A DNA stretch of 64,000 bases from Bacteroidales bacterium (GTDB taxonomy: Bacteria > Bacteroidota > Bacteroidia > Bacteroidales > VadinHA17), in the NCBI GenBank assembly GCA_030692905.1, contig JAUYBT010000085.1:100-64099 (forward strand). Reading direction: 5' to 3'. Both the position numbers and the translations under genes were made by a program. This document shows, one piece after another, positions 13,606 to 23,023 of this stretch (positions are counted from its first letter, which is position 1; every line of letters starts with the position of its first letter). A model generated the notes under the pieces. That model searched no databases. It saw only the letters and a list, made by a program, of their open reading frames with translations, and was not told where the DNA came from.

Positions 13606-16600
13606 ATGAGTATATATAGTGCATCAGTAAAAAGACCCGTTACAACCATCCTGGTTTTTGTTGCAGTGATGGTTATCGGTCTCTATTCACTTGTTCAGCT
13701 GCCTGTGGATCTTTATCCTGAAGTGGAGCTCCCTTTCGTAGCAGTCCTTACGACATATTCGGGTGCCAGTGCTTCTGACATTGAATCAAATGTTACCAGG
13801 CCACTTGAAAATACCCTTAACTCAATCAGTAAGCTTAAAGAGATAACATCCACCTCCAGCGATGGAACGTCAGTAATATTCATGAATTTTGAATATGGAA
13901 CGAACCTCGATGAAGCGTCCAACGATATCAGGAATAACCTCGGTTTTATGGAAGCGTTTCTCCCGGAAGATTGTGAGAAACCAACTATAATAAAATTCAA
14001 TTCAAGTATGATGCCTATAATCTTCTATGCTATTACAGCTAAGGAGAGTTACAGGGGTCTCGAAAAGATACTTGATGAAAAAATTGTAAACCCGCTTAAC
14101 AGAATCGAAGGAGTTGGCGCAGTAAGTCTTTCAGGTGTACCGGGTCGAAAAGTTTATATTGATGTTGACCCCCGGAAAATGGAGGCATATAATCTTACCA
14201 TTGAACAGATCGGGAATATACTTCGCGCTGAAAACATAAATATGCCGGCAGGTTACATTGAAATGGGTCAGACCGATTATCCTCTGCGTATCCAGGGCGA
14301 ATTTCCTGAAAGTGATGTTGTTAAGAATATTGTTGTGAGCAGTTTTAACAGCAATAATGTCTACCTGAAAGATGTGGCAGAGGTACGCGATACAATACGT
14401 GAAACAAAACTTGACACCAAGATCAACGGTACTCAGGGTATGAGCATGTATATCCAGAAGCAGTCGGGTGGTAATACTGTGAAAGTGACAAAAGAGGTTG
14501 AGAAAGCTCTGGTTACATTACAGAAAGATCTCCCCTCTGATGTAAAGATCGAGAAATTATTCGACAGCGCCACTTTTATAAATGATTCGATAAGCAACCT
14601 GACAGAGACACTCATGTACGCTGCCATCTTTGTCATTTTGGTTGTTCTCTTTTTCCTGGGGAGATGGAGGGCGACTTTTATTATTATTCTTACGATTCCT
14701 ATCTCTCTTATTGTGGCGTTTATTTACCTGTTTATTACAGGTGAATCAATAAACATTATCTCGCTAACCTCACTTTCAATTTCTATAGGGATGGTAGTGG
14801 ACGATGCAATAGTTGTTCTGGAAAATATCACAAAACATATTGAAAGAGGAAGCCGGCCGAGGGAAGCTGCTATTTATGCGACCAATGAGGTCTGGCTGGC
14901 AGTTATTGTTACAACATTAACAGTAGTAGCTGTATTCTTTCCCCTAACGTTTGTTAAAGGACTTACAGGAGTGTTGTTCAAACAGCTTGGCATGCTGGTA
15001 ACTATTACAATAGTAACATCTGTATTTGCAGCTATTACGCTGACACCTACTTTGAGTGTTCTTCTGCTAAAATGGTATCCTATTAAAAAGGATGCATCAA
15101 TTTGGACTTATGACGGAAGTATCAGAAAAGGACTTGACTGGTTTAACCGTTTTTATGAAAAAACTCTGCGATGGGCACTTCACCATAAGACTTTGGTATC
15201 AATTATTGCAATTGTAGTTTTTGTGGGATCAATGAGTCTGTTTGCTTTGATAGATACAGAATTTTTCCCTCAGGCCGATGAATCAAGAATGTCTGCAACG
15301 ATAGAACTTCAGACAGGAACCAGGGTTGACGAGACCATAAAAACAGCCGATAAAATTGACAAACTTATAAAGGAAAAATACCCTGAAGTCCAGCTGGTTT
15401 CAACATCAACCGGTGCTGACGACCAGGGTGGATTTGCATCAATATTTTCAGCCGGTGGAACCCACTCCATACGTTACAGTCTGAGTCTGGTCCCTATCGA
15501 GGAACGTTCAAAATCAGTCTGGGACATTGTTGAAGAGATGAGAGCTGATTTTGCCGGGATGCCGGAAATCATTGACTTCACCCTGAGTACATCAGATAAT
15601 ATGGGCAGTTTTGGAGGAAACACCGTGGATGTTGAAATTTACGGATACAATATTTCCGAAACCAATACTGTGGCAGATGAACTTAAAGGTAAAATTGAAA
15701 AGATCCAGGGTACAAAGGACGTTACTATCAGCCGTGACAAATCGAAACCTGAACTGCAGATCATATTCGACCAGAATAAGATGATTGCCAACGGACTCAA
15801 CACTGCTATGGCATCAACTGCGATTAAGAACAGGGTTGATGGTATGACTGCAACAAGGCTTCGTCAGTTCGGAGATGAGTATGATGTTGTGGTAAGGTTT
15901 AAGGAAAGTGCCAGGAATACACTTACTGAGATTGAAAATATTGGTATTCCAAACCCGACCGGACAGATCATAAGACTTGGAGAAATTGCACAAGTGAAAG
16001 AGTACTGGTCACCACCGAATATTGAACGTAAACGCAAAGAAAGGATTGTAAGAGTTTCATTTACTCCTTATAAAAGATCTCTTACAGATATCCAGATCGA
16101 TGTGCAAAAAGCAATCGATGAAACCGCACTTCCATCAGGTATAATGGTGCAAATTTCAGGTGCAATAAAAGAACAGATGGATGCATTTATGGATATCGCA
16201 TTTCTTATATTAATAAGTCTGATACTTGTCTACCTGGTCATGGCTTCACAGTTTGAATCACTGAAAATGCCTTTCATTATAATGTTTTCAATTCCCTTTG
16301 CCTTTTCAGGAGTAGCAATAGCTCTGTTCCTTACCAATACCTCATTGAGTGTCATTTCAGGTATAGGGGCGGTTATGCTGATTGGAATTGTTGTCAAGAA
16401 CGCCATTGTTCTGGTTGACTTTATCAACCTCATGCGTGAACGCGGGAATGAGCTTTACGAAGCAATAGCCATATCCGGGAGATCGCGGCTCAGACCGGTC
16501 ATAATGACTTCTGCTACAACCATACTTGGTATGTTGCCTCTTGCAATAAGTAAAGGGTCAGGTTCAGAATTATGGAGCCCGATGGGTGTAGCTGTTATCG

Positions 16601-16743
16601 GTGGACTTGTATTCTCAACTGTTGTGACACTTGTAATAGTACCTGTTGTTTATGCAATATTTTCAAAACATGGTGAAAGAAACAAGAACATTGCAGTCTA
16701 TTCAGAATTTGATTTTATGAATGGTAACAGTAATGGTAAATAA
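13606..16743 (+). CDS. efflux RND transporter permease (AcrB/HAE1-like)
   Basis: A 1045-aa, 12-TM protein with AcrB-family motifs (VVDDAIVVLENI, VKNAIVLVDF). Confidence 0.9.
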   Translation: MSIYSASVKRPVTTILVFVAVMVIGLYSLVQLPVDLYPEVELPFVAVLTTYSGASASDIESNVTRPLENTLNSISKLKEITSTSSDGTSVIFMNFEYGTNLDEASNDIRNNLGFMEAFLPEDCEKPTIIKFNSSMMPIIFYAITAKESYRGLEKILDEKIVNPLNRIEGVGAVSLSGVPGRKVYIDVDPRKMEAYNLTIEQIGNILRAENINMPAGYIEMGQTDYPLRIQGEFPESDVVKNIVVSSFNSNNVYLKDVAEVRDTIRETKLDTKINGTQGMSMYIQKQSGGNTVKVTKEVEKALVTLQKDLPSDVKIEKLFDSATFINDSISNLTETLMYAAIFVILVVLFFLGRWRATFIIILTIPISLIVAFIYLFITGESINIISLTSLSISIGMVVDDAIVVLENITKHIERGSRPREAAIYATNEVWLAVIVTTLTVVAVFFPLTFVKGLTGVLFKQLGMLVTITIVTSVFAAITLTPTLSVLLLKWYPIKKDASIWTYDGSIRKGLDWFNRFYEKTLRWALHHKTLVSIIAIVVFVGSMSLFALIDTEFFPQADESRMSATIELQTGTRVDETIKTADKIDKLIKEKYPEVQLVSTSTGADDQGGFASIFSAGGTHSIRYSLSLVPIEERSKSVWDIVEEMRADFAGMPEIIDFTLSTSDNMGSFGGNTVDVEIYGYNISETNTVADELKGKIEKIQGTKDVTISRDKSKPELQIIFDQNKMIANGLNTAMASTAIKNRVDGMTATRLRQFGDEYDVVVRFKESARNTLTEIENIGIPNPTGQIIRLGEIAQVKEYWSPPNIERKRKERIVRVSFTPYKRSLTDIQIDVQKAIDETALPSGIMVQISGAIKEQMDAFMDIAFLILISLILVYLVMASQFESLKMPFIIMFSIPFAFSGVAIALFLTNTSLSVISGIGAVMLIGIVVKNAIVLVDFINLMRERGNELYEAIAISGRSRLRPVIMTSATTILGMLPLAISKGSGSELWSPMGVAVIGGLVFSTVVTLVIVPVVYAIFSKHGERNKNIAVYSEFDFMNGNSNGK

Positions 16744-16771
16744 TATTTTGTAACCTGATAAATATATAATT

Positions 16772-17065
16772 ATGAAAGCAATAATGATAATATACAACCA
16801 GGCTCATACCGAAAAGGTAGAGTACTTGCTCGATAAGCTTGGAATAAAAGGATATTCACTCTGGGAAAATGTACAGGGCAGGGGCAGCAACACCGGTGTT
16901 CCTCACCTGGGAACTCATGCCTGGCCTGAGATTAATAAAAGTGTCCTTACTGTCATTGATGATGAACTGGTTGATACAGTCCTTGACAAGGTAAAGAGGA
17001 TTGATGTCATCAATGAAGAGGTAGGAATCAGAGCTTTCGTATGGGATATAATGAAGATGGTTTAA
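16772..17065 (+). CDS. small P-II-like transporter-associated protein (PG0541-like family)
   Basis: A 97-aa alpha/beta protein (MIIYNQAH...GYSLWENVQGRGS...) immediately after the RND pump. It resembles the Bacteroidota transporter-associated P-II-like family. Confidence 0.45.
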   Translation: MKAIMIIYNQAHTEKVEYLLDKLGIKGYSLWENVQGRGSNTGVPHLGTHAWPEINKSVLTVIDDELVDTVLDKVKRIDVINEEVGIRAFVWDIMKMV

Positions 17066-17131
17066 TCGTCATCACGAAAATAAAAAGGATTCCATTACGA
17101 ACCCTGTTTTATTTTCATGAAAATCAATTCT

Positions 17132-19288
17132 CTATTCCTCTTCTTCTTCCTCCGAATATGCTTTGATTACAGCTTCCTGGACATCGCCGGGTACCTGGGC
17201 ATATTCTGCAAACTTCATGGAATACATTGCACGGCCACCTGTTATTGAACTCAGTGCAGTAGAATATTTATTCATCTCAGCGAGAGGAACTTTTGCTTTG
17301 ATAACCTCAAAACGTTTTTCACTTGCCATACCGAGAACCATACCACGTCTGCCCTGCAGGTCGCTAATAACATCACCCATACGGTCGGACGGGACCATTA
17401 TTTCAACATCATACACCGGTTCCATAATTTTCGGTCCGGCATTTTTAAATGCCTGGCTGAAAGCATTTCTTCCGGCAAGGCGGAAAGAAATTTCATTTGA
17501 GTCAACCGGGTGCATCTTGCCATCATATACATAAACCCTTATATCGCGGGCATATGATCCTGTGAGTGGTCCAATCTCCATCTTCTCCATTATCCCTTTC
17601 AGGATTGCAGGCAAAAAGCGTGCATCAATTGCCCCTCCCACAATACTGTTTACATAAACAAGTTTTCCACCCCAGGGAAGTTCAATCTCCTCTTTGTCGC
17701 GGACTGATATCTTTATCTCTTTACCACCAATCTTTTGCATGGCTGCTTCTTTGGAGCCCTCTTCATAAGGTTCGATAATCATATGAACCTCACCAAACTG
17801 GCCTGCGCCTCCTGATTGCTTCCTATGCCGGTAGTCAGCCTGCGCTGACTTTGTAATTGTCTCACGATAAGGTATTTTCGGAGGATTGAAGTTAGTGTGG
17901 ATCTTATAAATATTATCAAGATGCCACTTCATAATATTAAGATGGTATTCTCCCTGACCATGAACTATGATCTGTTTTAATTCTTTTGAGTATTCGATTA
18001 TGATGGTTGGGTCCTCAAGATGAATTTTATTCAGAGCTTCACCAAGTTTCTCATCATCACTTTCGCTCTGAGCTTTGATTGCTGTACGGTATTTAGGTTC
18101 GGGGAATTTAACACCTTCATATTTCCAGTCATTACCCGGAACATTAAGGGTATGACCGGTTTTGGTGTTTTTAAGTTTTACAAACGCACCGATATCACCT
18201 GTGTGGAGTTCAGGGACCCGTGTTCTGTTTTTTCCTGCACTTATATAAAGTTGTGCCAGCCGCTCTTTTGTACTGTTATTACTATTGACAACATCGAGAT
18301 TTTCCGTAACCTTTCCTGAATATACTCTAAAGTAATGTATCTCTCCGATATGTTCTTCGATTGATGATTTAAATACATAAACGGATGCAGGTCCGGCGGG
18401 ATTTGGTTTAACTTCGTTTCCCTTGCTGTTGACAGGAGCAGGCATATCTGAAATTGAAGGTGTTTTATTAACTATGAATTCCAGAAGACGGTCAACACCG
18501 ATATTGTTTTTTGATGACAGGCATAATACCGGGAACATTCCTCTTGTAACAATTCCTTTGGCAATTCCTTTTTTTATTTCATCTTCAGTCAGGGTATCAT
18601 TAGAGAAGAACAGTTCCATGAGTGATTCATCACTTTCAGCTGCTTTTTCAACGAGTGCACTATGCAATTCAGCAGTTTTGGCTGCATGCTCAACCGGAAT
18701 ATCAACTAATTCTGCCTTTCCACCGTCTTTCGAATAGCGGAGCATTTTCATTTTAAGAACGTCAATAATAGAATTGAATCCAACTCCTTCATTAACAGGA
18801 TACTGAATAAGAATGATATTGTTACTTAATCTTTCCTTCAGCATCTCAATTGACTTCTCAAAGTTGGCTTTTTCGTGATCGAGGCCATTTATTACAAGGA
18901 TAAGCGGCTTATGATTTTTTTCGGCGTGTCTGAAATGTATCTCGGTTCCAACCTCAACACCATTCTGGACGTTGATCGTCATAACGGCAGCATCGGAAGC
19001 AAATAATGAAGAAATAACACCACCGCTGAAATCATCGAGACCGGGAGTATCGAAAATGTTTATTTTATGATTCTGAAATTCGGTATAAAGTACTGTTGAA
19101 AAGATTGAGTTTCCGTTTTCATGCTCAATTGGACGATAGTCGGAGACTGTATTATTTCCTTCGATAGTACCTCTTCTTTCGATGATGCCGCCATTAAAAA
19201 GCATTGCCTCTGCAAGGGTAGTTTTTCCTGACCCCGAGTTACCCAGAAGGGCAATGTTTTTAATCTGGTCCGCCTGGAATGTTTTCAT
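17132..19288 (-). CDS. elongation factor G paralog with degenerate GTPase motifs
   Basis: Full five-domain EF-G architecture (718 aa). G1 is GNSGSGKTT, G3 is DTPGLDDF (no His) and G4 is NGLD (no Lys). The canonical fusA lies 1.3 kb away. Confidence 0.85.
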   Translation of the reverse strand: MKTFQADQIKNIALLGNSGSGKTTLAEAMLFNGGIIERRGTIEGNNTVSDYRPIEHENGNSIFSTVLYTEFQNHKINIFDTPGLDDFSGGVISSLFASDAAVMTINVQNGVEVGTEIHFRHAEKNHKPLILVINGLDHEKANFEKSIEMLKERLSNNIILIQYPVNEGVGFNSIIDVLKMKMLRYSKDGGKAELVDIPVEHAAKTAELHSALVEKAAESDESLMELFFSNDTLTEDEIKKGIAKGIVTRGMFPVLCLSSKNNIGVDRLLEFIVNKTPSISDMPAPVNSKGNEVKPNPAGPASVYVFKSSIEEHIGEIHYFRVYSGKVTENLDVVNSNNSTKERLAQLYISAGKNRTRVPELHTGDIGAFVKLKNTKTGHTLNVPGNDWKYEGVKFPEPKYRTAIKAQSESDDEKLGEALNKIHLEDPTIIIEYSKELKQIIVHGQGEYHLNIMKWHLDNIYKIHTNFNPPKIPYRETITKSAQADYRHRKQSGGAGQFGEVHMIIEPYEEGSKEAAMQKIGGKEIKISVRDKEEIELPWGGKLVYVNSIVGGAIDARFLPAILKGIMEKMEIGPLTGSYARDIRVYVYDGKMHPVDSNEISFRLAGRNAFSQAFKNAGPKIMEPVYDVEIMVPSDRMGDVISDLQGRRGMVLGMASEKRFEVIKAKVPLAEMNKYSTALSSITGGRAMYSMKFAEYAQVPGDVQEAVIKAYSEEEEEE

Positions 19289-19345
19289 ATTTTTCTGGAT
19301 ATTATATGTTATACTTATTTCCTATATACTCTGATGAGAAGGGAA

Positions 19346-19353
19346 CAAAAATA
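19346..19353 (-). promoter_or_regulatory. Bacteroidota -7 promoter box (TATTTTTG on the minus strand)
   Basis: The plus strand reads CAAAAATA. It lies 58 nt upstream of the EF-G paralog ATG. Confidence 0.35.
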
Positions 19354-19652
19354 ATAATTTTTTAAAAACAGCAGAAGAAAGAGATGAGAATTACAAATTT
19401 TTTATTTCCTTTGCAGCAGTTTTTTGAAATACAGGAGTACCGGTTTTTCTTTCACAGTAAGTTTACAAAACGTTTTTCGCTAGGGAAAGATCGGGAAGGA
19501 ACCTGTTGATAACTTACATTTTTAAGTAAGATATATTGTTTTAAACGTGCTTTAAGGCCTGATTATTGGGAATAATCAGGTATCTGAATCATGTCTGTTA
19601 TTTTGTTTTTAAAAAAATGACATACTGTTTGTGAATTAAGAAATAAAAACAA

Positions 19653-19660
19653 TACCTTTG
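19653..19660 (+). promoter_or_regulatory. Bacteroidota -7 promoter box (TACCTTTG) of the str operon
   Basis: Exact TAnnTTTG match 47 nt upstream of the rpsL ATG. Confidence 0.5.
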
Positions 19661-19706
19661 CAAACCATTTTTTTGAGTAAAATTTAATGCTAAAATAATT
19701 GGAAAT

Positions 19707-20081
19707 ATGCCGACAATTCAGCAATTAGTAAGAAAAGGCAGGAAGAAACTGGTAGATAAAAGTAAAGCACCCGCTCTGGATTCATGTCCTCAGAGAAGGG
19801 GTGTTTGTGTTCGTGTTTACACCACAACGCCAAAGAAACCTAATTCAGCTATGAGGAAGGTGGCCAGGGTAAGGCTTACCAACCAGAAAGAAGTAAACGC
19901 TTATATTCCGGGAGAAGGTCATAATCTGCAGGAACACTCTATCGTACTGATCAGAGGTGGCAGGGTTAAAGATCTTCCGGGTGTGCGTTATCACCTTGTT
20001 CGTGGTGCTCTCGACACCTCCGGGGTTGATGGTCGTACTCAGAGAAGATCAAAATATGGTGCTAAAAGGCCTAAGAAGTAA
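19707..20081 (+). CDS. rpsL: 30S ribosomal protein S12
   Basis: [12 protein letters not shown]...[14 protein letters not shown]... is unmistakable uS12. Confidence 0.97.
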
Positions 20082-20100: not shown

Positions 20101-20577
20101 ATGAGAAAGTCAAAACCAAAGAAGAGGATTCTGTTACCGGATCCCAAATATAAAGATTCGTATGTAACGAGGTTTGTGAATAATCTTATGTTCAATGGTA
20201 AAAAGAACCTGGCTTTTAAAATTTTCTACGACTCACTTGAAATAGTCGGAGATAAATTTAAAGGCGAAGGCAAGTCACCGCTCGAAATATTCAAGCAGGC
20301 TCTTGACAATGTTACCCCTCAGGTTGAAGTAAAAGCCCGCAGGGTTGGTGGTGCAACTTTCCAGGTGCCTATGGAGATCAGGACTGACAGAAAGGTAAGC
20401 ATCAGCATGAAGAACATGATCTCTTTTGCAAGGAAAAGAACCGGTCATTCAATGGCTGAAAGACTTGCAGCAGAGCTTATGGCGGCTTATAAACTTGAAG
20501 GTGGAGCATATAAGAAGAAAGAAGATACTCACAGGATGGCCGAAGCAAACAAAGCTTTCGCTCATTTCCGGTTTTAG
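20101..20577 (+). CDS. rpsG: 30S ribosomal protein S7
   Basis: Translation matches uS7 and the gene follows rpsL. Confidence 0.97.
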
Positions 20578-20610: not shown

Positions 20611-22713
20611 ATGGATAAAAACCTGAAATATACCAGAAACATTGGAATCATGGCTCACATCGATGCCGGGAAGACCACTACAACAGAGCGTATTCTGTTT
20701 TATACAGGTCGTACCCATCGCATGGGCGAGGTACATGATGGCAATGCCCAGATGGACTGGATGGTTCAGGAACAGGAGAGAGGAATTACAATAACCTCTG
20801 CCGCTACAACTACTTACTGGAAATACAGGGGAGAAGATTATAAGATTAATATTATTGATACTCCCGGCCACGTCGATTTTACAGTTGAAGTTGAAAGATC
20901 ACTAAGGGTTCTTGATGGTGCTGTTGCTGTCTTCTGTGCAGTAGGAGGTGTTGAACCTCAGTCAGAAACTGTTTGGAGACAGGCAAATAAATATGTTGTA
21001 CCAAGAATTGCCTTTATTAATAAGATGGACCGTGCGGGAGCCGATTTTTACAGCGTTGTTCAGCAGATCCAGGAAAAACTCGGAGCTAATCCCGTCCCAG
21101 TTCAGATACCAATTGGTGCAGAGGAGAATTTCAAAGGTTTTGTTGACCTGGTGAATATGAAAGCAGTCGTTTATTATAACGACGAAGCAACTGGTATCCG
21201 TTTTGAGACCGAGAAGATTCCTCAGGATATGAAAGAGGAAGCTGATGAGTGGAGAGGAAAACTGATTGAAGCTGTTGCTGGGGTTGATGATACTCTTCTT
21301 GCCAGATATCTTGAAGATCATGAGTCAATTACCGGAGAAGAAATTCTCGTTGCTCTCAGAAAAACAGCTATTGATGGACTTGCAATCCCGGTAATCTGCG
21401 GAGCTGCTTTCAAAAATAAAGGAGTACAGAGTCTTCTCGATGCTGTAATCGCTTTCCTGCCTTCCCCTGTTGATAAAGGAGCTGTAACCGGAATTGACCC
21501 AAGAAATGATGAAGAAATTACACGTGAGCCGGACGATGAAGCACCATTGGCCGCTCTCGCATTTAAAATAGCAACTGATCCGTTTGTGGGTCGTCTGGCT
21601 TTCTTACGCGTTTATTCAGGTGTTCTCCATGCTGGAGATACAGTTTTGAATATCCGCACAGGGAAAAGGGAACGTATTAACCGTCTGTTCCAGATGCATG
21701 CCAACAAACAGAATCCTAAAGAAAGTATTTCGGCCGGCGATATATGTGCGGGTATTGGATTTAAAGATCTCAAGACCGGTGATACATTATGCGCAATTAA
21801 TAAACCGATATTGCTTGAATCAATGGATTTTCCGGAGCCGGTTATTGGTGTGGCAATCGAGCCTAAAACTCAGGCCGATATTGATAAATTATCAATGGCA
21901 CTCAATAAACTTGCCGAAGAAGATCCGACATTCCAGGTCAGAACGGATCCCGATAGCGGGCAGACAATTATCCATGGTATGGGTGAACTGCATCTGGAAA
22001 TTCTCATTGACCGTCTGAAGAGGGAGTTTAAAATTGAATGTAATCAGGGTGCACCCCAGGTTGCATACAAGGAGGCCATTACAACAACTGCTGAATTCCG
22101 TGAAGTATTTAAGAAGCAGACCGGAGGCAGGGGTAAATTTGCTGATATGACTTTTGATTTAATGCCGGCAGATGAAAATGTAAGAGGTCTTCAATTTGTA
22201 AATGAGGTTAAAGGCGGACATATTCCGAAGGAGTATATTCCATCAATTGAAAAAGGATTCCGCGAAGCAATGGTAAACGGACCACTCGCAGGTTTCCCTC
22301 TCGATAGCCTTAAAGTAGTACTCAAAGACGGTTCGTACCATCCGGTTGACTCTGATGCTCTGGCATTTGAAATTGCTGCCAAACAGGCTTTCAGGAAATT
22401 TGCGGGGAAATGCAATCCCGTAATTCTGGAACCAATTATGTCTACAGAAGTTGTAACTCCTGAAGAATATGTTGGCGATGTTATAGGCGATTTTAACAGA
22501 AGAAGAGGCAGGGTGGAAGGTATGGAATCGAAAGCAGGCTCAAGAGTCGTTAAAGCAAAAGTACCTCTGGCCGAAAAATTCGGTTATGTTACAGTACTTC
22601 GGACCCTTACCTCGGGAAGAGCAACTTCAACAATGGAGTTCTCTCATTATGAAAAGGTACCTGCGGAAATATCAAACAGAATTGTAGAAATTACAAAAGG
22701 AAAAATTCTTTAA
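20611..22713 (+). CDS. fusA: elongation factor G
   Basis: [17 protein letters not shown] and NKMD motifs in a 700-aa protein within the str operon. Confidence 0.97.
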
Positions 22714-22717
22714 AGAG

Positions 22718-23023
22718 ATGAGTCAGAAAATTCGTATTAAACTGAAATCTTACGATCATAATCTGGTGGATAAATCTGCCGAGAAGATCGTAAAAACAGT
22801 AAAATCTACTGGTGCAGTGGTTAGCGGTCCTATTCCGCTTCCAACCCACAAAAAGATTTATACAGTGCTTCGTTCCCCGTTTGTAAACAAAAAAGCAAGA
22901 GAGCAGTTTCAGCTCTGTTCTTACAAAAGATTGCTCGACATTTACAGCTCAACACCAAAGACAATCGATGCTCTGATGAAACTTGAGCTTCCAAGCGGAG
23001 TTGAAGTAGAAATTAAAGTGTGA
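22718..23023 (+). CDS. rpsJ: 30S ribosomal protein S10
   Basis: Translation matches uS10 ([10 protein letters not shown]...). Confidence 0.97.

Follow-up and report, generated by a model that had tools for sequence, protein, structure and literature searches.

Bacteroides thetaiotaomicron carries, in addition to the canonical elongation factor G (EF-G1, the product of fusA), a divergent paralog, EF-G2, encoded by fusA2. When carbon becomes limiting, fusA2 is the most strongly induced gene of this organism, rising 238-fold, while fusA drops 10-fold; the induction is direct, via BT4338/Cur at a 22-bp operator, and colonization of the gut requires fusA2 (Townsend et al., 2020; PMC6989115). According to later summaries of Han et al. 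(2023), the paralog catalyzes translocation without GTP hydrolysis (PMC12775393) and ‘enables GTP-independent translation’ (PMC10294740). Here, we describe an intact ortholog of this gene in an uncultured Bacteroidales bacterium, together with a conserved and probably structured RNA in the spacer that separates it from rpsL. Both lie on 64 000 nt of contig JAUYBT010000085.1 (assembly GCA_030692905.1, positions 100 to 64,099 of the forward strand), and ‘the window’ below means this whole stretch.

The nearest relatives outside the EF-G2 family, at ~37–43% identity, belong to the EFG II subfamily (Margus et al., 2011), which includes Thermus thermophilus EF-G2 (PDB 1WDT) and Mycobacterium smegmatis EF-G2. 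Members of the two groups share a P-loop that opens with Gly, a Ser at the switch I position, the common replacement of the catalytic His, and C-termini that are often acidic in EFG II. In contrast to EF-G2, the His position of EFG II proteins is mostly taken by Tyr or Phe; their P-loop His is preserved (GHxGxGKT), the Lys of the G4 motif is often retained, and the domain IV insertion is missing from them. For the T. thermophilus protein, whose motifs read GHAGSGKTT, DAPGYGDF and TKLD, ribosome-dependent GTPase and translocation activity have been described (preprint 10.64898/2026.05.25.727771).

The EF-G2 family itself is already known and has been characterized in Bacteroides, and the fusA2 product of the window is an ordinary, unsurprising member of it. 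What is new is the conservation of the head-to-head arrangement of fusA2 and rpsL across a large clade of environmental Bacteroidales without the Cur box, and an RNA in the spacer that has no Rfam match; of the two, the RNA is the more novel lead.

Identification of the fusA2 product as EF-G2

A preliminary description of this DNA, made from the letters alone, had pointed out two divergently transcribed EF-G family proteins 1.3 kb apart and had asked whether the paralog was orthologous to EF-G2 of B. thetaiotaomicron or had degenerated independently. Both open reading frames (ORFs) are indeed intact, with start codons 1.3 kb apart (Table 1), and the profile and structure-database comparisons answer the question in favor of an ortholog. 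The NCBIfam model NF058620 (EFG2_Bacteroid, ‘elongation factor G2’) matches the fusA2 product with 1192 bits over model positions 1–717 of 717, above its curated whole-protein cut-off of 1000 bits, and gives the EF-G1 of the window only 487 bits. With TIGR00484, the equivalog model for canonical EF-G, the fusA2 product reaches 512 bits, under the cut-off of 659.4, and the product of the canonical fusA, in which the NKMD motif noted earlier is found as INKMD, reaches 1046.8. Both proteins contain all five EF-G domains of Pfam (GTP_EFTU, EF-G_D2, EFG_III, EFG_IV and EFG_C). This shared architecture is combined with an identity of only 31–33% between the fusA2 product and canonical EF-G, a difference in every catalytic motif, and 28 extra residues in domain IV of EF-G2.

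The top match in the PDB is a 718-residue chain (7UVP/8DMF), which aligns without gaps from 1–718 to 1–718 with an E-value of 2e-290; the identity to 7uvp_A is 426/718, or 59.3%, and the corresponding motifs of that chain are GSSGSGKTT, DCPGSDDF and VNQLD. PDB chains of canonical EF-G match at E ~1e-130 and in two separate stretches, 6–512 and ~542–714. The length and the Bacteroides-type motifs of the 7UVP/8DMF chain, together with the literature on EF-G2, lead us to infer that it is evidently B. thetaiotaomicron EF-G2 (BT2167). Its depositors named it ‘Tetracycline resistance protein TetQ’; its sequence is that of the EF-G2 family, and the name, seemingly inherited as a database label, might lead automated annotation astray.

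Measured against the B. thetaiotaomicron protein, the fusA2 product has the same length, the same five domains and a gapless alignment, and it shares the P-loop G[NS]SGSGKTT, the lack of a His after DxPG and of a Lys in G4, a Ser in place of the switch I Thr, a domain IV insertion containing LxWGGK, and a C-terminus that is acidic; in both genomes a canonical fusA is present as well, in a str operon. The two systems differ in the tail, which is KQTEE in B. thetaiotaomicron and EEEEEE here, and in their setting. BT2167 lies far from BT2729 (PMC6989115), whereas fusA2 is here head-to-head with rpsL, and a gut Bacteroides with a Cur box contrasts with an uncultured environmental Bacteroidales that has no Cur box upstream of the gene.

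We also searched 1.84 billion protein representatives clustered at 50% identity. The best-scoring match is one full-length representative of 718 residues (931 bits, 57% identity), and the second full-length match falls to 645 bits and 43% identity, a drop from which we conclude that the EF-G2 family is tight and distinct. At closer range, a protein 100% identical to the fusA2 product has been deposited from a Bacteroidales metagenome-assembled genome (MAG; assembly GCA_030655115.1), and public data hold hundreds of relatives at least 90% identical, nearly all of 718 residues; an identity of at least 91% is reached by more than 120 cluster representatives, again nearly all with this length. The gene is thus no chance ORF, and its product is under strong purifying selection.

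Conservation of the GTPase motifs and of the domain IV insertion

Conservation was assessed on 78 orthologs translated from 80 genome loci. The motifs given in the preliminary description (GNSGSGKTT, DTPGLDDF, NGLD and a poly-Glu tail) all hold when read codon by codon. The further possibility that the catalytic His or the G4 Lys is merely shifted could be settled by alignment with the EF-G1 of the window, in which both residues are replaced in register.

The family P-loop follows the pattern G-N/S-S/A-G-S-G-K-T, in which the His and Asp of the canonical AHIDAGKT are missing (N17 and G19 in the window protein); in 79 family members, G16, G21, K22 and T23 are invariant and N17 occurs in 99%. 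In switch II, D80, P82 and G83 are invariant, and position 84, directly after DxPG, is mostly Leu, otherwise Ala, Ser, Met or Phe, and His in none of the 78 orthologs. N134 and D137 of the G4 motif never vary, and position 135 between them is Gly, Gln, His, Ser or Glu, with Lys in a single ortholog of the 78. In switch I, Ser takes the place of the Thr in 99% of the family. Replaced across the family are the P-loop His and Asp, the switch I Arg-Gly-Ile-Thr, the switch II His and the G4 Lys (save for the single K135); these are the catalytic residues and those in contact with the sarcin–ricin loop (SRL), while the nucleotide-binding residues (GxxxxGKT, DxPG and N..D) are retained.

Neither EF-G1 nor any solved canonical EF-G contains residues 511–542 of domain IV. 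The region is common to B. thetaiotaomicron EF-G2, and L537, W539, G540 and G541 within it are invariant. The acidic C-terminus is found in nearly all orthologs.

Fixed nucleotide-binding residues and a fixed insertion, alongside variable catalytic and SRL-contacting residues, indicate that the fusA2 product is a functional, selected protein and not a decaying copy. Since the P-loop, DxPG and N..D are invariant, it probably retains nucleotide binding. The loss of the residues is ancestral to the whole EF-G2 family, so the gene is an ortholog and did not degenerate independently in this lineage. Nor is the replacement of the His a Bacteroidota peculiarity: among the 150 nearest 50%-cluster representatives, mostly of EFG-II type, the catalytic-His position is Tyr in 71, Phe in 31 (a Tyr/Phe share of ~70%) and His in ~3%, and many have acidic ends, so replacement is the rule among EFG-II-type paralogs.

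Proposed function and alternative explanations

Our reading is that fusA2 encodes an EF-G2 ortholog acting as an alternative, GTP-hydrolysis-free translocase with a role in starvation, and we put the probability of this at about 85%. EF-G2 would bind the ribosome like EF-G and promote slow tRNA–mRNA translocation without hydrolyzing GTP; this would permit cheap ongoing translation under energy or carbon scarcity, and the EF-G1 of the adjacent str operon would serve fast growth. The lack of GTPase activity, the translocation activity and the starvation role are all proposed by homology to the B. thetaiotaomicron protein, with which identity is 59%. A region of 26 residues found only in EF-G2 is reportedly required for protein synthesis and ribosome release, and it is also said to be responsible for the missing GTPase activity. 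The domain IV insertion described above is the natural candidate for this region.

From the loss of the catalytic His, the preliminary description had predicted little or no ribosome-stimulated GTP hydrolysis. The His is replaced, as it said, but the step from there to inactivity is unsafe alone, given that Tyr or Phe is usual at this position in EFG-II relatives and that T. thermophilus EF-G2 is reported to be GTPase-active; motif loss is for this reason no proof of inactivity. The stronger argument is membership in a family whose characterized member lacks the activity, and in which the P-loop His and the G4 Lys are gone as well and the insertion is present.

Several observations weigh against the proposed function. 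Identity to the characterized ortholog is only 59%, and the diagnostic residues themselves differ, with Leu instead of Ser after DxPG and Gly instead of Gln in G4. The spacer has no Cur operator, the element from which fusA2 is driven in Bacteroides, and the host is an environmental, non-gut organism in which the physiological trigger may be different. An EFG-II protein with Tyr at the His position, T. thermophilus EF-G2, has been reported as GTPase-active (preprint 10.64898/2026.05.25.727771). Finally, an AlphaFold2 model built from 20 sequences, all at least 91% identical, reached a pLDDT of only 34.5 and a pTM of 0.22 and could not be used; a solved structure at 59% identity makes a fold search unnecessary.

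Two alternatives accept membership in the EF-G2 family and change the activity. A protein that still hydrolyzes GTP, slowly or by means of another catalytic residue, as T. thermophilus EF-G2 reportedly does, would fit the invariant P-loop, DxPG and N..D and the nucleotide binding that they probably preserve. We think this rather unlikely: unlike 1wdt, with its GHAGSGKTT and TKLD, members of the EF-G2 family are also devoid of the P-loop His and the G4 Lys. The characterized family member is reported, in papers citing Han et al. (2023), to be without GTPase activity, and the insertion to which this property is reportedly tied is conserved. Improbable as well is a ribosome-binding factor that does not translocate and acts in hibernation, protection or recycling only, like mycobacterial or spirochaete/mitochondrial EF-G2. 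Divergence has led other EF-G paralogs to recycling-only or non-canonical roles (preprint 10.64898/2026.05.25.727771), and no role has been demonstrated for the acidic tail or the insertion in the fusA2 clade. However, the B. thetaiotaomicron ortholog supports translocation and translation according to the summaries cited above (PMC12775393, PMC10294740) and the same preprint, the core of domain IV and domains III and V are well conserved in the fusA2 product, and the recycling-type EF-G2mt keeps canonical GTPase motifs, which the fusA2 product does not.

The other two alternatives place the gene outside the family or deny it a function, and we give either of them very little credence. Ribosomal-protection proteins of the Tet(Q)/Tet(M) type share an EF-G-derived translational GTPase fold and are frequent in Bacteroidales, and the depositors' name of the closest solved structure would suggest such a protein. 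They are, however, ~640 residues long, against 718 here, and retain their GTPase motifs. The placement, which the preliminary description had named as a possible objection, was judged by curated cut-offs of hidden Markov models and by PDB E-values: the fusA2 product falls far below every ribosomal-protection cut-off (tet_protect, NF012153, 262 against 775 bits; Tet(Q), 122 against 1425; Tet(M), 145 against 1420), and the TetM chain in the PDB matches at E = 1.6e-40, compared with ~1e-130 for EF-G and 2e-290 for 7uvp. At the level of sequence, a tetracycline-protection identity is refuted. A fusA copy that is degenerating independently, or is already a functionless pseudogene, would account for the lost catalytic motifs, but the frame is intact, the length of 718 residues is fixed family-wide with hundreds of relatives at least 90% identical, and invariance extends to many alignment columns, among them nucleotide-binding residues and part of the insertion; moreover, B. 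thetaiotaomicron EF-G2 has the same substitutions and the synteny of fusA2 is conserved.

A conserved, probably structured RNA between fusA2 and rpsL

Of 70 related genome loci whose upstream sequence spans 800 nt or more, 64 have fusA2 head-to-head with rpsL-rpsG-fusA, down to ~65% EF-G2 identity; the exceptions are five loci without rpsL nearby (L032, L073, L074, L075 and L080) and one that is rearranged (L055). In the 418-bp spacer (19289–19706) lies an element of ~110 nt (Table 1). Among 51 aligned orthologous spacers, its conservation exceeds 90% in every locus with an EF-G2 at least ~71% identical to that of the window (the lowest being L057), and the more distant loci lack it.

We consider it likely that this element is a real structured RNA on the plus strand. 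In 52 sequences read on this strand, 94.2% of the helix cells are paired, compared with 40–63% for slid partners; in six pairs both sides have changed, and the covariation score of 0.230 exceeds that of shuffled alignments (0.167 ± 0.009), with 0 of 500 shuffles as high. A pattern scan of metagenomes added at least 120 further copies, and those with enough flanking sequence have rpsL 141–414 nt downstream on the same strand and a divergent fusA2 ortholog upstream. The copies number more than 170 in total, and every one is sited between fusA2 and rpsL. Across 134 non-redundant copies, helix P2 is 95.3% canonical, with UA, UG, CG, GC and AU pairs all represented, and on the plus strand G.U cells number 433 and A.C cells 7. 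The folding energy of the single sequence is not significant (z = −0.8 on the plus and −1.1 on the minus strand), so the case for a structured RNA rests on the comparative evidence.

The strand follows from the same comparison. A reading on the fusA2 strand was rejected, as 167 helix cells that would be A.C there become G.U on the rpsL strand; RNAalifold applied to a MAFFT alignment of the fusA2 strand returned invariant pairs only. An ORF of 41 residues (19384–19509, plus strand) that overlaps the element was rejected as coding, with indels of 1–4 nt in the P2 loop of orthologs and an ATG upstream of the promoter-like box.

Within the element, the AGUA and GAAG of the internal loop between P1 and P2 are invariant, as is GUAAGUUUACAAAA in the P2 loop, and the AGUA/GAA part resembles the sarcin–ricin/loop-E motif. 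One segment downstream, AACUUAC, could form either a pseudoknot with the P2 loop or an alternative hairpin, which in window-type copies is followed by a U-rich tract. The heptamer GGAGUAC is also found in helix 27 of 16S rRNA; this identity is within chance expectation and we have made no use of it.

The preliminary description had suggested that the head-to-head placement might reflect co-regulation. This holds only in part: the placement is conserved, but the conserved spacer element is on the strand of rpsL and does not follow fusA2 to a new position. In the rearranged locus, part of a complete MAG chromosome (OY764960.1; L055:6001-9650), fusA2 has been relocated and inverted and is now upstream of rpsL on the same strand, with an ORF of 229 residues between them, and the RNA element is still found 113 nt upstream of rpsL. 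The element, then, belongs with rpsL.

The closest described counterparts are the rpsL 5′ leaders in Rfam (predicted; Pseudomonas and Rickettsia) and the autoregulatory leaders of ribosomal proteins. Like them, the spacer RNA is structured on the sense strand upstream of rpsL, and it shares with them a possible terminator/anti-terminator alternative. It differs in matching no model and in being confined to one Bacteroidales clade; furthermore, it precedes a second promoter-like box, so a separate small RNA is equally possible. In the spacer, Rfam 15 gave only chance-level matches at E ≤ 10. No Rfam family, including tRNA, rRNA, riboswitches and ribosomal-protein leaders, reached its gathering score anywhere in the 64-kb window, for which no separate ARAGORN tRNA scan was made. 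This is so despite the long run of ribosomal-protein genes in the window.

As for what the RNA does, it may be a leader or attenuator of the str/S10 genes, or it may be a small RNA. Its internal loop, which is similar to loop E, would bind a protein, and pseudoknot and hairpin would be the two states of a switch; our confidence in any specific mechanism is much lower than in the RNA itself. The fullest version, which we think unlikely, is an undescribed str/S10 cis-regulatory leader or attenuator (or small RNA) with an internal loop to which one of the proteins encoded at the locus (S7, S12, L4 or an EF-G) would bind. Competition between the pseudoknot and the terminator-like hairpin would set read-through into rpsL-rpsG-fusA, and, because the RNA is back-to-back with the fusA2 promoter, this could make the expression of EF-G1 and EF-G2 reciprocal in lineages without a Cur box.

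Promoter-like elements and absence of a Cur operator

The features of the locus are collected in Table 1. The Bacteroides −7 consensus is TAnnTTTG. The box matching it upstream of fusA2 is preceded by a conserved A/T-rich stretch. In the box just upstream of the RNA, CTTTGC is invariant and TTnnTTTGC occurs in 64 of 69 copies, and the box proximal to rpsL is conserved even in distant loci that lack the RNA element. Between the element and this proximal box, at 19557–19580, there is a perfect 10-bp hairpin, CCTGATTATT-GGG-AATAATCAGG, which reads on both strands; other subclades have a different G+C-rich hairpin at this position, so that the structure is conserved and the sequence is not.

Table 1. 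Coordinates of fusA2, its motifs, the spacer elements and the flanking genes in the window
Feature	Position	Strand	Remarks
fusA2 (EF-G2)	17132..19288	−	Intact ORF, ATG start, 718 residues plus stop; NF058620 match
fusA2 stop codon TAG	17132-17134	−	Checked at codon level
Acidic tail EEEEEE (residues 713–718)	17135..17152	−	Checked at codon level
Domain IV insertion (residues 511–542), GSKEAAMQKIGGKEIKISVRDKEEIELPWGGK	17663..17758	−	28 residues beyond EF-G1 in the alignment
G4, INGLD (residues 133–137)	18878..18892	−	N and D of NKxD kept; Gly for Lys
G3/switch II, DTPGLDDF (residues 80–87)	19028..19051	−	DxPG kept; Leu (L84) in place of catalytic His
G1/P-loop, GNSGSGKTT (residues 16–24)	19217..19243	−	Walker A GxxxxGKT kept; His and Asp of canonical AHIDAGKT gone
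Terminator-like hairpin and T-run	17086..17105	−	27 nt past the fusA2 stop
fusA2 promoter-like −7 box, TATTTTTG	19346..19353	−	TAnnTTTG match; conserved in 51 aligned spacers
Promoter-like box, TTCCTTTG	19406..19413	+	Just upstream of the structured RNA
Conserved, probably structured RNA, ~110 nt	19432..19530, within 19406-19545	+	Comparative pairing
P1, CAGG/CCUG	19432-35 / 19502-05	+	
P1/P2 internal loop, AGUA/GAAGGAA	19436-39 / 19495-501	+	AGUA and GAAG invariant
P2	19440-51 / 19483-94	+	12 bp
Possible pseudoknot, GUAAGUU/AACUUAC	19457-63 / 19511-17	+	
Alternative hairpin, AACUUAC/GUAAG	19511-17 / 19526-30	+	
Proximal rpsL promoter-like −7 box, TACCTTTG	19653..19660	+	51-spacer alignment
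rpsL	19707-20081	+	Divergent from fusA2
rpsG	20101-20577	+	Between rpsL and fusA
Canonical fusA (EF-G1)	20611-22713	+	INKMD; TIGR00484 1046.8 against 659.4 bits
AcrB-type RND transporter (1045 residues), then P-II-family protein (97 residues)	13606-17065	+	Convergent with fusA2

The Cur operator (wwwTATGTTnTAnAACATAwww) is absent from the spacer at up to three mismatches, and in the whole window there are seven matches at this level against 6.9 expected by chance. Given the lack of a Cur box, fusA2 is probably regulated in some way other than the Cur circuit described in Bacteroides. The operator is a regulon feature of the genus Bacteroides and not of the EF-G2 protein family. A scan for sigma-70 promoters, with a model ill-suited to Bacteroidota, remained at chance level; of its output only the terminator match after fusA2 was used, and this terminator-like hairpin suggests that fusA2 is monocistronic.

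Implications

These results would extend a family of translocation factors that work without GTP hydrolysis beyond gut Bacteroides, to orthologs in abundant uncultured Bacteroidales MAGs, whose isolate and record names suggest samples from fens, sediments and sludge digesters. The variation at position 84 (Leu, Ala, Ser, Met or Phe), set against the fixed nucleotide-binding residues and insertion, amounts to a natural mutagenesis series on EF-G2's need for GTP. The conserved head-to-head layout, the missing Cur box and the spacer RNA offer a handle on how the switch between EF-G1 and EF-G2 may be wired outside the model genus. Current understanding is not overturned by the findings on fusA2 or the spacer.

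Neighboring genes

Downstream of fusA, rpsJ starts 4 nt past the fusA stop (window 22713–22718), so that str and S10 appear to form a single long operon, rpsL-rpsG-fusA-rpsJ-rplC-rplD and onward. With such a fusion, more proteins come into question as autoregulators of an rpsL leader. On the other side of fusA2, the trio of RND transporter, P-II-family protein and fusA2 is syntenic in most of the closer loci, and the coupling of a P-II-like protein to an RND efflux operon is unusual.

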